A DNA stretch of 64,000 nt, from the NCBI GenBank assembly GCA_000182565.2, contig KQ257457.1; one strand, given 5' to 3'. This document shows positions 57,184 through 63,364 of this stretch, in pieces. The number at the start of each line of letters is the position of its first letter. The first letter of the stretch is position 1. Below the pieces are notes generated by a model that made no database searches, had not been told where the DNA came from, and was given only the letters and a program-made list of their open reading frames with translations. The translations under genes and the position numbers were made by a program. This DNA is from Spizellomyces punctatus DAOM BR117. Its lineage: Eukaryota.

Positions 57184-57778
57184 GGCGGCGATTGCAGGCC
57201 AACTTTAGATGGCGTTGAAACAAGATGGTGCCAAGGGTTGTCGCTGGCCTAATGGCCAGTCGCGGTTATGGCACAGCCATCCATGCTTGTTGCTAGGCAG
57301 CACATGGCACAGCTCCGTGGGTCAGTTGGCGCTTTGGACCAACGTCCGCATTGCCCAATTGCCGATTTCTGTTTCTGCCATCGTTCCATAAGTCGCCCCA
57401 GGTGATTTCCGTTTTCATTTCCTTGCAAAGTAGTTGAAGGAAAGGCACAGTTGTTTGACGCATCTGGAATCTTTGCTGAATCCCCTCCAAGTGGTGAGTT
57501 GACGTACTGCAATGTCAGTCTTTAGTTTCTTGCAGTTGGAAGCAAGCAAGCAAGTTGACCAGTTGCGAACATGCACTCAACTTTGATTTCTGCTAGTTTC
57601 CATAGTCTTTGTAGTTGAACCGCACAAGGCAACAAATATTCAGTTATCGCTCGAGGGTCTTCGTGTCACCTACAGGAAGATACAGTTTTGCCCTGATGCA
57701 CCCTCTGCATCCTTACACTGCTAGCTGAGCAACGTCAGTTATTCCCCGGTATCGAAGCGCCGAGAACAGGCGTAGGGC

Positions 57779-60000
57779 ATGAACGGTGGATATCTCGCAC
57801 ATGGGGGGTTGGACCCGGCAGATGCAGACGCAGGACGAGGACAGTACCTCTATCGGACCGAAACTCAATCATCTGGCCGCAGCCGCAACAGCTTGGATGG
57901 GTCGGAGGGAGCGCCTTCACCAATAGGAACGGCGTTTATAGGGAGAGGGGCGTCCCAGAATTCATACTCGCGGGGATCTTTTCAAGACAGTTCTCACCGT
58001 GGCTCGATATCATCAGAAAGCTCAGGAAGGCAACGTTCACCACCCTTGCCCAATAGCACACCACAAAGCATGCCCGCTACAAAGCCAAGAGACGATGTTA
58101 TCCCCTCCCTTCCTCCACCGACCTTAAGAAGCCCCCTCTATTCAGCTGATGCGATGGTATTGCTATTTCCGCACCTTATTGACGCCATCGCGGGTAGCTT
58201 ACCAGCTGTATGTTCTCAAGTGGCATGCATTTGCTACCAGCAATGATTTTCTCATGCAGATTCCATATAGGATGCGTGGGAGTGGGCATCGACAGAAATT
58301 GCCGCACCTGTTATTTCCGTGAAAGAGGATGTCAAGGAAGAGAAGAAGGTATAATCCTTCAGCGGCATTGTAGTCGGGGATAATAGTAGTTTTCTGACTC
58401 ACTTACATTGTTAGGCCCCCGAAACTGTGGAGTCAGTATTACAAAAGGATGGGAGAGGTGAGTGCTAATATATTCGGTACAGTGGGATATTTCAGAAATT
58501 TATACCAAATCCAGGGCATGTGGTGTGGAATATGGTGGAAACGGAACGAAATTACGTGTCACAGCTCGGAATACTGCAAAATGTGAGCCAAACTTGTAGT
58601 TGGATCTCCATAGGGTCCTCTCGTTGAAAGATCTATTGTTTGACAGATTTTTCGTCAACGATTATTGGATCAAGGGATATTATCTGAGACAGCGGTCAAC
58701 CTTATTTTTGCGGGCATAGGTACGCGAGAGCTCGCAACGCCATCTGCGGCATCAATCTGAATATATCTGTTTTTTTCAGATGATCTGCATGTATTCCATT
58801 TGAAGTTCAGTGCCGAACTGGAGAAGCTTGTTGCAGTTGGGTCATGGTCTACCAAGGAGACACGAATTGGGGAGTTGTTTATTCGCTACGTACGTAGAGG
58901 GTTTGCGACCGCGACTGCAAGTGATCCTAACATTTCTTGGATTTTGCAGAAAGACGATCTGGTGCGGATATACACGAAATTCATTGACAGTTACGCTATG
59001 TCGCAGAAGCTTATGAAAAGGGAGGAGAAGGAGAATGCTGAGTATCAAGCATTCATGAAGGTATACGACGTGTTTCGGGTTGGTCGGATGCAGATCGGAC
59101 GTCTTACTCCTGAGACATGTGTAGGATGCGGTGAAATTGAAGGAAACTGGTCGTCAGCAGCTGAAGGTGCGCTCTTGACCTTTCACTCTACACAGCTCGC
59201 TGCCTTGCTGATGCCTTTCATAGGATTTCTTCATTTTGCCTGTCCAGCGGACGGCGAGATACCATCTTTTGCTGAAAGGTATGCGCATATAGATGAATAA
59301 AATTCCAGTTTTGTATCTAAATAACCGCTGGCCTTTCAAAGATCTGAAAAAGCGAACAGACGAATCGCATCCCGATTACCAAGATCTACAAACTGCATGG
59401 GAGGCCATGAATGAACTCGCTGCATCCGTGAACGAAAAGAAACGCAAAGAAGAAGAGGCAACCGGTCTTTTCGAAGCATTCGAACAAACGAAAAATTGTC
59501 CTCCAACCCTCATCAAACACACACGTAAACTAGTCCTCAACGCGGACGTTGTGGACCACCGCACTGCAAAAGTTATGCATTTGTTTTTATGCTCGGATCT
59601 GCTCATGGTCACACATCCGATTGGAAAAGGAGTCCTTCCGTTCGGACGGGATAAGGCGGAACATCTGTACAAGTTTGTACGATGGCTGGATTTATTGGAG
59701 ATTGAGGCGGAGTATATGGGCGGTCAAGGAGAAGGTGGGTCGTCTGCTGTGGGCATGTTTTCGAACACGAATTAAGCTCATTCACTATTTCTAGCATATC
59801 GAGACGTGGTAAAAGTCACCCATGATCCGAGCAAACGCGACCCGAGTGATTCCAGCACTCAGCCCCTCGAGCCTGGCGGATTCTCAATGCTCGTGAGATT
59901 CGAAGGAATGGACGCTACCAAAAATCGAAAAGATTTCTTAATGGCGATCCAGTCGGAGATCAAAAAGAATCAAGAGACGAGGAGAAAAGATGGGACATGA
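57779..60000 (+). CDS. Rho guanine-nucleotide exchange factor (DH-PH)
   Basis: MVETERNYVSQL, FFILPVQRTARYHLLLKDLKKRTDESHPDY, VNEKKR, HLFLCSDLLMV (PH). Confidence 0.88.
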
Positions 60001-61080
60001 AGTCTTCTGTAGGGGATGTAGGGGATGAGGCCTCCTGCCGAGAAAATCCGCCGCATTATTTTGGCTGGTGCTTTACGCCTTTGGAAGGGTTTTATGGTTG
60101 CTGGTGGTTGAAAGGCGACCTTGGTGTTTACAGGACCTTAATCTTCGTATAGGGCTAGTCTTAGTCAGGTTCTTATGTAGTAGAAACATGCTCCAATTGA
60201 CATTATAATTTTTGGAGCCCTCCTGACGGGATCCGCTGGGTTTTCCGATGTGAACAGAATGGGGAAGTCTTTCAACATGCGTAAATACTTAGTGTAGAGG
60301 TGACAGAAACTGGCACTAGCTACTACACCAGGGAATAAACCAGCGACAACTGGTTCGGAAAAGCTAACTCAGCTACTACTAGGCAATTATACACGCAATA
60401 CGTAATGGTTGGTTCTAACCGGATAATTGCCCACCACCACACACGGTCCCTACTAGGCCTTGATCCAGAACTCTTGATGGCATTGAAGCCAGAGTCTTCG
60501 CAACATTGGGGAGGCTCACAAGCTGGAGGATGTTCAGTGACAAGGCTTGGAGACTAGAGAAAAAAACTGCATGTCAGAAGATGACCCGATGACAAGAAAT
60601 GCAAGAAATGCCATCAATACATACCAACCAAGCTCAACTAATGTGGCAGCATAATAGTAGGTTTTGTTATCGGATCCGATTGGTTGCCGCTGGTTCTGAT
60701 CACGGTTGCTGTCGGGCGGTCGAGGTCCTCGACACCACCACATCGGCGTTCTCATGGTTGACCGAGTCGCGATGAGGTTGCAATGTGGGCCGCTATGAGG
60801 TTGCAATGTGGGTCGCAATGAGCGTTTGTGCAGATGCTTCGAGTCGAGGATGGGTAAAGAGGAAAGAGGGAAAAGGCCCCCCTTTTATAGACCTTTGGCA
60901 TGCGCCTCACCGCAGTTTAAAAAAAAAAAACATTACATGCATGCCACACCAATCTGAGCGATAGAGGGGGGTTCTGATTATGCGATATGATTAACCGGAT
61001 TAATCCGGATAATAATGGGTCCTAGTGCCATTTTCAATCACCTCCACACTATGTATTCCAGGTTTTCCTGTTGTAAGTAC

Positions 61081-63364
61081 TTATTCTGTAAAGAGCACAG
61101 CTCTGCCTCTGCTATATACCCTTTTCACAATATCTAGTCGAGGGAGTAAATTCTGAAAGTAGAGAGAAACTGTTCAACCTTATATAACCGACGTTTGCTG
61201 TGAGGTTCTAGCAGTACCTCAAACACCACCGCCAACTGATCCTCTCCTTTCGCCACAACCGCTAAGTAATATCTCACAGTCAATAGTGTGATGGCTTCGT
61301 TGATGATCAGGTCCGCGATATTGGAGAGAGGAATGAAGCGCGCAGTGGTCTGACCAAGTCTATTGCGGGTCTCAATTTGTATACCCAGAGTGCGAATGAT
61401 GAGAAGTGATTCTATAAGCTTGACTTTATGAGTAGCATGTGGGCATTGGCAGGGCGATAGTAGATTACCTCGGTGGACACTCAACAGTCTGGTCAACACC
61501 CAAACTACGAGTATCAGAGCAAATGGTAGGGAAAACTGCCAGCGGCTGAGGGAGCCCCCAAGCAGGTACTGTTTGAAAGGTTAAGCAAAAAAGAATGGCG
61601 ATCTATCCAGCACCATGGAACCTACCACGATAATTAAAATACCTGAGCATGTGGCTAAAAGGACCACGTCCAGGACACTCCAACCCGGATTTGCCTTCTT
61701 CACAACAAACTCAATTGCCCCTTCCCCCAATAATCGTTCTTCTAGGAGAAAGCCTCCATGAGAGTACGTGATGGTGTGCGGTCTTGGTTGTGATAGATCT
61801 GCACTGGTCGCTGAAGATGCGGGTTCTTCCGACGTGATGAGATCCGTACCCGAAGTGCTTAGAACAGGCTCGTTGAAAACCTGTCGAACATTCCCTTTCG
61901 CAAAAATCGGTTCAAATGCATGCGCCTTGATCATGCACGCCAATATTCCGGCATTAACAAGATAGAATATAGCACTAGCTGCCCAGAGCTCCCGAAACGT
62001 ATTGTGCCCGAGGTGCTCCAGGCGAAATGCTTGGGATAGCCAGAGAGCCTGTAAAACGTGTATGAGCAATCAGCTCTTGCGTTGAGTCGACTGCACCCAT
62101 ATGCCGACCTGACCCGCAACCCAAAGAGACAAGAGTCCAATACCGAGTTTCCATTGATCTGCCACAAGGCGGCTGCTAGGCAAAATAATGGGTAGAAAAC
62201 AGAGGTACCACATAAAATACTACATAGGAAAATGATCAGCACACGGAGTAGGATCCACAAGAACAGTCGATCCACCATCACACCTGAGAGGTACAAACTT
62301 TGTTCAACATAACAAAAGCAAATGTCTGCGCAAAGGTTGCGAATACGACATCTTTCGCGAGGACGGCCCCGACTACCGTTACTAGGCCAAGCTGTGGGGC
62401 AAACGAGAGGATTGAAATGATTCTTGAGATTAAGGGGCCGTTCAACACAGCAGATGCCGGTTCATGGGAAGAGAGGTACATGTGGTAGAAATACGGCGAA
62501 AAGTTGTGGCGGTGGTCTTTACGTGTGACGTGGTAGAGGTATGTTCCCTCAAGAAACTCATGACCATAACTACGGCGGGTGAGCTGAAATCCTCGTTCGG
62601 TTACAGAAGTGCAATACTACTCACATATAGTACATCAAGGCGGTCAGTGCAAAAAAAACACCTCCGCTGATGAAGCCGAACTCTAAGCGCTTCCAAGTGA
62701 AAAATGCCCTGACTCGCCGACCCACAGATGCGTTCCGGTACCTGTCCTGCGTCGCTGCTCTCCTCACATTATCAGTTGCTTTTGTCCTTTTTCCTTCCTC
62801 CCCCTCGAAATCGGAATCCAAAAATAACCAAAAAGGGACAGCATAAATAATAGGATAAATCTTAAAGTGTACGCCAATTCCAAACACGACGGCGCCTATT
62901 CGTCGCCATTTCTTTACAATCAACGCCCATAATACTGCCAACACTAACGCAGCAACTATACTCTCCGCATTTCCCCGCGTCGATATTGCGATAACGAACG
63001 GGTTGAGCATCCACACCGCTGCATACTTGCTTGCACGATGATCTCCCATACCGCGAGCAGTCAAGATCTCATGAATGAACCATCCTGCGACAAGATCACA
63101 TATGCAAAAGAGAATTTTTCCCCATAACGGGTGAAGAGTTATATTTGGAAGTACCAGATAAGCGAGCAGCGGTGTGTAGCGGTAGGTCGCTCGAAGATAA
63201 GGTGACAACCCTTGAGAAATATATCGGGCTCCATCGGTGAAAACGAGGTAGTCAATATCCGTGAATTTGACAACGGGATGTCTGTCTTGGTAAGCGCCAT
63301 AGATGAGGAACCCAGCGTGAAGTAGAATTGAAGCGAGGGTCAAAGTCTTGAAAGTTAATCCCAT
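61081..63364 (-). CDS. GPI14: GPI mannosyltransferase I (PIG-M/Gpi14) fused in frame to PIG-H/Gpi15 (GPI-GlcNAc transferase subunit)
   Basis: PIG-M: VKFTDIDYLVFTDGA, TYRYTPLLA, ISTRGNAES, HFKIYPIIY, NKVCTSQYF, QALWLSQAFRLE. No stop follows; the frame continues via GT-AG introns into PIG-H-type ESLLIIRTLGIQ...FIP...INEAI...YYLAV...VVFENLLPRL. Confidence 0.82.

Follow-up and report, generated by a model that had tools for sequence, protein, structure and literature searches.

The stretch of DNA analysed here, 64,000 nucleotides (nt) of contig KQ257457.1 of the fungus Spizellomyces punctatus DAOM BR117 (assembly GCA_000182565.2) and referred to below as the window, carries on its minus strand a gene that encodes PIG-M, a protein of glycosylphosphatidylinositol (GPI) anchor synthesis and, further along the same reading frame, a second protein of that pathway, PIG-H. 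PIG-H is part of the GPI-N-acetylglucosamine (GlcNAc) transferase (GPI-GnT), which faces the cytosol and performs the first step, and PIG-M is the lumenal first mannosyltransferase. An initial annotation, made from the sequence itself, had claimed one gene with PIG-M followed in frame by PIG-H, and this core claim is borne out by the domain matches, the placement of the join within a single exon, the public gene model and the models of five related species. The gene, SPPG_05327, is quite probably a genuine fusion that is ancestral to its clade, its product most likely being one endoplasmic reticulum (ER) membrane protein of about 641 residues.

Gene model

Coordinates are those of the window, and residue numbers those of the 641-codon model built from it, in which an ATG at 63364 and a TAA at 61081-61083 of the minus strand enclose seven exons and six introns (Table 1). 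The spliced coding sequence of 1926 nt has a single stop codon, the terminal one. The last three introns (GT..AG; 57, 57, and 65 nt) lie exactly where the initial annotation had placed them, and its reading of an unbroken frame through a full PIG-H domain to the TAA at 61081 was equally correct. Intron 5 is open in frame, and its removal restores the alignment with homologous proteins. Splicing of intron 6 was seen in RNA reads (one raw run of 60-nt reads, about 6% of which was sampled), where four reads from two start places join position 61152 to 61218 and skip 65 nt. The end of exon 7 agrees with the C-termini of the homologues P0004 (Geranomyces variabilis), P0005 (Geranomyces), and P0007 (Powellomyces hirtus).

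The public model of 645 amino acids (aa) is recorded as XP_016607994.1, KNC99954.1, and UniProt A0A0L0HGB8 (P0160), and sits in the 90% cluster of the protein of Spizellomyces sp. 'palustris'. It is identical to the window model over residues 1-618, but reads through intron 6 and so ends in 27 intron-derived residues. On this point, the RNA reads and the homologue C-termini both favor the shorter model. The fusion is already public as a gene model, though under a name, "GPI mannosyltransferase 1", that describes the PIG-M half only. As biology it is apparently undescribed, and the titles and abstract openings of the literature searched held no description of a PIG-M/PIG-H or Gpi14/Gpi15 fusion. 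The public annotation is corrected here in both its name and its 3' end.

Table 1. Exons, introns, and protein segments of the PIG-M::PIG-H gene, in window coordinates.
Feature	Position	Strand	Description
PIG-M::PIG-H coding region	61081..63364	-	7 exons, 6 introns, 641 codons plus TAA
Exon 1	62625..63364	-	N-terminal half of PIG-M, including DxD (..FTDIDY..)
Intron 1	62570..62624	-	55 nt, GTGAGT..TAG; required for frame; agrees with public model
Exon 2	62284..62569	-	PIG-M core
Intron 2	62220..62283	-	64 nt, GTGTGA..TAG
Exon 3	62109..62219	-	PIG-M
Intron 3	62049..62108	-	60 nt, GTCGGC..CAG
Exon 4 (junction exon)	61626..62048	-	141 codons without stop; query that retrieved the fused homologues
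End of PIG-M module, last membrane helix	61920..62048	-	Residues 380-422; PF05007 positions 220-259
Conserved 16-residue tail, directly after last PIG-M helix	61872..61919	-	Residues 423-438
Variable Ser/Thr-rich linker	61758..61871	-	Residues 439-476
PIG-H N-terminal strands and first PIG-H membrane helix	61626..61757	-	Residues 477-520; conserved alignment block
Intron 4	61569..61625	-	57 nt, GTAGGT..CAG; in-frame TAA inside
Exon 5	61469..61568	-	Second PIG-H membrane helix; hydropathy peak 533-551
Intron 5	61412..61468	-	57 nt, GTAATC..TAG; open in frame
Exon 6	61218..61411	-	PIG-H Pfam domain
Intron 6	61153..61217	-	65 nt, GTACTG..CAG; RNA-confirmed
Exon 7	61081..61152	-	PIG-H C-terminal helix and TAA

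The two modules

Exons 1-4 matched the Pfam profile PF05007 (PIG-M, GT50; profile length 259) with scores of 58.2, 103.1, 33.3, and 28.8 bits, against a curated cut-off of 23.4 bits, and together covered profile positions 1-61 and 97-259, the gap being a variable loop. Exon 1 (E 1.5e-15) also gave PIG-U and GT87 clan matches, exon 2 (E 3.1e-29) covered positions 97-184, and exon 3 (E 6e-08) positions 185-219, while exon 4 reached the end of the profile (259/259) at its residue 40. The D-I-D of the DxD motif, in the first lumenal loop, is encoded in exon 1, with both Asp columns conserved to at least 90% among 70 aligned sequences; the role of the motif is taken from a published study of the enzyme (PMC12653191). 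The fold was tested on the P. hirtus homologue P0007, which shares 280 of 422 residues with the PIG-M part of the window protein. In a sequence search, P0007 matched solved chains of GPI mannosyltransferase I (GPI-MT-I) at E 1.8e-83, the alignment running up to P0007 residue 418, five residues short of the solved chain's end. Its AlphaFold2 (AF2) model is confident over residues 1-440, with values of the predicted local distance difference test (pLDDT) mostly >90, and the best Foldseek match in the PDB was 9wno_A (Candida glabrata GPI-MT-I; E 2.2e-22, target TM-score (TMt) 0.83). The PIG-M part is, from this homologue, predicted to have the GT-C fold.

Residues 1-422 therefore resemble PIG-M/Gpi14, the catalytic subunit of GPI-MT-I (CAZy GT50), in the full PF05007 family, the DxD motif, and the fold. 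PIG-M/Gpi14 has PIG-X/Pbn1 as its partner. Stand-alone PIG-M stops within a few residues of helix 12 (390 aa in the solved chain, 441-445 aa in unfused chytrid proteins), whereas the fused chain runs on for another 219 residues.

That extension contains a PIG-H module. The PIG-H profile PF10181 (cut-off 25 bits, profile length 67) was matched in exon 6 over positions 1-67 of 67, with 79.3 bits and E 1.8e-22 (open reading frame (ORF) 61137-61580), and was found at 58.3 and 68 bits in the two full-length homologues recovered from a representative protein library (see below). Both families are present in one reading frame, each above its cut-off. Hydropathy peaks at residues 504-522 and 533-551 mark two membrane helices ahead of the cytosolic domain, and the PIG-H part of the P0007 model consists, at low confidence, of two predicted strands, two long helices (525-545 and 555-582), three strands, and a helix. 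The closest ESM Atlas clusters to the PIG-H part are stand-alone PIG-H proteins of 181-209 aa, with 25 of 30 matches carrying that family alone, and this resemblance indicates that the part is full length. With the PIG-H ORF as query, a PDB sequence search gave no match to a solved PIG-H chain at E up to 10. No second PIG-H was found in the 64-kb window, and a word-based protein search gave no stand-alone PIG-H among 155 candidates of 81-259 aa, which is weak evidence; among longer proteins, one of 5188 candidates matched, and this was the fused cluster.

PIG-H/Gpi15 is a non-catalytic subunit of GPI-GnT, alongside PIG-A, C, P, Q, Y, DPM2, and ARV1. The module described here is like it in the whole PF10181 domain, the two preceding hydrophobic helices, the N-terminal strands, and in size, but unlike the stand-alone protein it lacks a separate start codon and is joined to the C-terminus of PIG-M.

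The join between the modules

Exon 4 encodes, without interruption, the last PIG-M helix, a 16-residue tail, a 38-residue linker, the N-terminal block of PIG-H that contains EFVVKK, and the first PIG-H helix. Since the join lies inside this single exon (62048-61626), no choice of splice sites creates it. As the initial annotation stated, there is no stop codon after the C-terminal helix of PIG-M, exon 4 being open over all 141 codons, and a Ser/Thr-rich linker (Ser or Thr at 14 of its 38 residues) does lead to EFVVKK and the two hydrophobic segments. About 70 open codons following the PIG-M helix would be expected by chance in some 3-4% of cases, (61/64)^70, and chance is ruled out by the presence of the same open join in five other species.

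Tail and linker differ in their conservation. The tail aligned without gaps in all comparisons, and was identical to that of S. 'palustris' at 16 of 16 residues and to those of the other four fused proteins at 7-9 of 16; in the P0007 model it has pLDDT values of 94 and 87. The linker shares only 7-9 of 38 residues with proteins of other genera, with gaps in three of four protein alignments. It is modelled in P0007 at pLDDT 32-54 and predicted to be disordered, as part of a disordered region spanning P0007 residues 441-497. Despite the low identity of the linker between genera, the join is open in all six species.

A codon log-odds score, for which 10 long ORFs from other parts of the window served as a small training set (11 kb), gave +0.16 bits/codon in frame for 61704-61919, a stretch that includes the linker, against -0.14 and -0.25 in the other two frames. 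The accepted exons scored +0.06 to +0.15, except exon 7 alone (-0.12). Five of the six introns and the upstream DNA were negative in all three frames, and intron 3 had one weakly positive frame.

Methionine occurs in the 641-residue model at positions 1, 106, 119, 244, 277, 334, 345, and 418 only, leaving the last 223 residues (419-641) without any, and the earlier statement that no Met is available for a separate PIG-H start after the PIG-M helix is accurate. In the homologues P0004, P0005, and P0007, Met is missing from the whole region that starts at the last PIG-M helix and extends past the first PIG-H helix, so that no independent AUG start is available ahead of their PIG-H membrane helices. 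The open join, the conserved tail, the codon score, and the absence of Met in these three homologues all argue that the linker is translated.

The tail (61872-61919, minus strand) is common to all of the fused proteins. Neither of two unfused chytrid PIG-M proteins in the alignment has it, one ending earlier and the other having a different sequence at that place, and in the P. hirtus model it is packed on PIG-M with high confidence. It may be an adaptor that arose with the fusion.

Phylogenetic distribution

A protein search with exon 4 recovered five proteins at E <= 0.001 among 581 candidates, and four of the five carry both PF05007 and PF10181. These were from Spizellomyces sp. 'palustris' (635 aa, 90% identical), G. 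variabilis (567 and 667 aa), and G. michiganensis (670 aa); the fused G. variabilis records are P0003, P0004, P0161, and P0162. Over the matches to the join exon, identity was 90% in one other species and 39-49% in three others. The fifth protein, from Polyrhizophydium stewartii (445 aa), is PIG-M alone. With the S. 'palustris' sequence as query, phmmer gave 3484 matches at E <= 0.001 in a library of 1.84 billion representative proteins, but just two of the best 150 were full-length, those of P. hirtus (659 aa, in two separate NCBI records) and Phlyctochytrium arcticum (655 aa). Pfam was run on 18 of these 150, namely the two full-length matches and 16 others of at least 507 aa, and PIG-H was found in two of the 18, the rest being PIG-M alone or PIG-M with unrelated domains. 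The remaining 132 have at most 496 aa and are therefore unable to hold both modules. The survey of related fungi that the initial annotation called for shows the same architecture in the models of five related species.

A maximum-likelihood tree of the PIG-M part (30 rows, with no unfused member of the Spizellomycetales) placed the five fused proteins in one clade, with ultrafast bootstrap (UFboot) 93, Shimodaira-Hasegawa-like approximate likelihood-ratio test (SH-aLRT) 71, and presence in 94% of 200 bootstrap trees, the bootstrap being not fully settled; a quick tree gave the clade SH-aLRT 95. The nearest neighbors of the clade are unfused chytrid proteins. The simplest reading of these sequence comparisons is that the fusion originated once, in an ancestor of the Spizellomyces/Powellomyces/Geranomyces group. 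P. arcticum is listed under Chytridiales in the NCBI taxonomy, yet in the tree its PIG-M part falls together with the fused Spizellomycetales proteins. This species has been transferred to Triparticalcar (Spizellomycetales), and its position in the tree would fit such a transfer.

In metagenomes, PIG-H was not found downstream of PIG-M at any of four confirmed PIG-M loci (116 pattern matches; tblastn with five PIG-H parts as queries, best E 0.29), although three of the loci (L001-L003) have identical match statistics and are apparently one sequence, and L001, with only about 330 nt downstream, is uninformative. The representative library also held predicted proteins in which PIG-M is joined to squalene/phytoene synthase (1058 and 930 aa) or to CC2D2A and CEP76 domains (2169 aa), all among P0020, P0068, and P0087; these may be merged gene models or further fusions.

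Membrane topology and possible function

In the cryo-electron microscopy structure of C. glabrata Gpi14, the chain has 12 membrane helices and both of its termini are cytoplasmic (PMC12653191). This topology, together with the chain alignment and the fold match to 9wno_A, implies that the fused chain leaves PIG-M on the cytosolic side. PIGH is described as being in part embedded in the membrane and in part cytoplasmic; very little of its complex is lumenal, and in an AlphaFold3 model of that complex it touches PIGQ and PIGA (PMC12182360). The join accordingly falls in the cytosol, where PIG-H begins, and the topology check raised in the initial annotation gives a compatible result. From these models the fusion is predicted to be a topologically legal protein of 12 + 2 helices with a complete PIG-H.

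The protein would work as follows. Its N-terminal, 12-helix GT-C module would be PIG-M/Gpi14, the catalytic subunit of GPI-MT-I, with a lumenal active site. The chain would exit the last PIG-M helix into the cytosol, traverse the short conserved tail and then about 40-90 residues of disordered linker rich in Ser and Thr, and continue as a complete PIG-H/Gpi15, made up of cytosolic strands, a hairpin of two helices, and a domain in the cytosol. Each module would probably join its usual complex, and the tether would then fix the two complexes at a 1:1 ratio within a few nanometres of one another, so that the first step and the first step after the flip would share one membrane patch. The hand-over of substrate may be improved by this proximity. 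We infer that the gene gives a single mRNA and an uncleaved protein, both halves of which are functional; a kinetic benefit may follow. At the level of sequence, the fusion is a plausible hint that GPI-GnT and GPI-MT-I are physically coupled.

The interest of such coupling is that the route by which glucosaminyl-phosphatidylinositol (GlcN-PI) or GlcN-acyl-PI, made on the cytosolic side, reaches the lumenal mannosyltransferase is only partly understood. DPM2 belongs to dolichol-phosphate-mannose (Dol-P-Man) synthase as well as to GPI-GnT. Both DPM2 and ARV1 are given as GPI-GnT subunits, and yeast ARV1 has been proposed to help GlcN-acylPI reach the first mannosyltransferase (PMC12182360); CLPTM1L has been reported to be a scramblase that GPI biosynthesis needs in order to be efficient (PMC9169118). 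To the DPM2 and ARV1 bridges the fusion would add a third link of this type, but a covalent one. DPM2 and ARV1, however, are shared or accessory subunits demonstrated biochemically, whereas the fusion is a link known from sequence alone in one fungal clade. A subunit of GPI-GnT joined to the catalytic subunit of GPI-MT-I would represent independent evidence, of a genetic kind, that side-by-side work of the two complexes is possible and perhaps the normal state. S. punctatus itself can be transformed.

A much broader view, which we regard as unlikely, is that GPI-GnT and GPI-MT-I sit together in a supercomplex in eukaryotes generally, with PIG-H beside helix 12 of PIG-M. In that case the two enzymes, with ARV1, the scramblase, PIG-L, and PIG-W, would make up an assembly line that passes GlcN-(acyl)PI across the membrane, and the tail that follows helix 12 would be a remnant or adaptor of the PIG-H/PIG-M contact.

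Alternative explanations

That the fusion is an artefact, with an assembly or sequencing error or a merger of gene models hiding a stop between two genes, is very hard to credit. Other long PIG-M 'fusions' in the library (those with squalene synthase and CC2D2A) may be mergers of this sort, but nothing of the kind was found for this gene. Its join lies within one exon of raw sequence, and DNA contigs from three low-coverage public runs, which may derive from the same strain as the assembly, crossed it with zero differences from the window (over 61055-61915, 61398-62022, and 61026-61824). The same open join recurs at 90% identity in one species and at 39-49% in three, and the orthologues exclude a sequencing error here; the hidden stop in 61700-61920 that the initial annotation had considered is absent. 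More credible, though still improbable, is that one locus yields two proteins, PIG-H being translated from a transcript that begins internally, with Met418 or a non-AUG codon as its start, or released by cleavage in the linker, so that the fusion would exist only as an ORF or precursor. Several observations weigh against a single fused product. RNA depth on the gene strand was 20, 19, and 10 in three bins over 61091-61381, fell to 0.5-1.7 over 61382-61672, and was 0 in the four bins of 61673-62060 and 0-0.5 over the remainder of PIG-M. Depth over the last 300 nt exceeded that over PIG-M 20- to 40-fold, a pattern that an internal promoter driving a shorter PIG-H transcript would also give. In the single run sampled (about 6%), no read crosses the join, and the transcript evidence anticipated by the initial annotation is confined to the splicing of intron 6. 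The last PIG-M helix contains an in-frame Met in the window protein (residue 418) and in the S. 'palustris' protein P0002 (residue 420), the linker of P0003 (G. variabilis) contains a Met, and the PIG-H N-terminal block of P0008 (P. arcticum) contains three. The linker is also long, weakly conserved, and predicted to be disordered, as would suit cleavage. Furthermore, the fused homologues are predicted gene models throughout, rather than cDNA or protein, and the PIG-H part of the P0007 model has pLDDT of 38-57, too low for contacts to be read, because only five sequences cover it. Against two proteins, the RNA depth already drops within the PIG-H coding sequence (10.5 at 61285-61381, 1.7 in exon 5, and 0.5 in the N-terminal bin), which is unlike a full-length PIG-H transcript and fits a 3'-biased library. 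The only depth peak on the gene strand is the 3' end of PIG-H, with 0-0.03 over 61673-62157, and because such a library shows no peak just after PIG-M, a separate PIG-M 3' end is mildly disfavored. The Met of the last helix is missing from P0004, P0005, P0007, and P0008, three of which have no Met before the PIG-H membrane helices, and the frame is open in every sampled genus, which would be needless if PIG-H were translated from an internal AUG.

A single fused protein need not imply coupling, and a serious possibility, to which we give somewhat less than even weight, is that the fusion is real but functionally neutral: two adjacent genes would have merged through loss of a stop codon and a promoter, leaving halves that act independently on either side of a flexible linker and implying nothing about coupling elsewhere. 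The restriction of the fusion to one clade agrees with this, as do its rarity among representative proteins (two of the best 150 matches), the unfused state of neighboring chytrids (Polyrhizophydium, 445 aa; Podochytrium, 441 aa), the four metagenomic PIG-M loci, none with PIG-H downstream, and a linker that varies in both length and sequence. Less easily explained by neutrality are the retention of the fusion, without any observed reversion, in all five genera sampled from the clade, and a 16-residue tail that is conserved only in the fused clade and confidently modelled; links between GPI-GnT and mannosylation are, moreover, known independently from DPM2 and ARV1 (PMC12182360). Should the fusion be neutral, it would still be a clean example of a topology-compatible join across two steps of a pathway.

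Sequences flanking the gene

A dispersed, multi-copy repeat lies at about 60800-61055, starting some 25 nt downstream of the stop codon of the fused gene. Summed contig depth over it was 110-350 per bin (about 100-700 at single positions), compared with about 2.7 over the gene itself. A boundary at 61053-61057 is marked by numerous loose ends. The multi-copy element contains a 30-nt inverted repeat (60987-61016) and is represented by RNA reads on both strands; the window held no other copy, and the repeat gave no Rfam or tRNA match. At the other end of the gene, opposite exon 1 (62643-62739), RNA reads were piled to a depth of 3.1, with eight molecules ending at 62670. Their first mates lie on the plus strand, unlike those of reads over the 3' end of the gene, which lie on the minus strand, and the pile may represent antisense RNA or duplicates. 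Beyond the repeat, long open frames at 57700-60150 on the plus strand mark a convergent neighboring gene.

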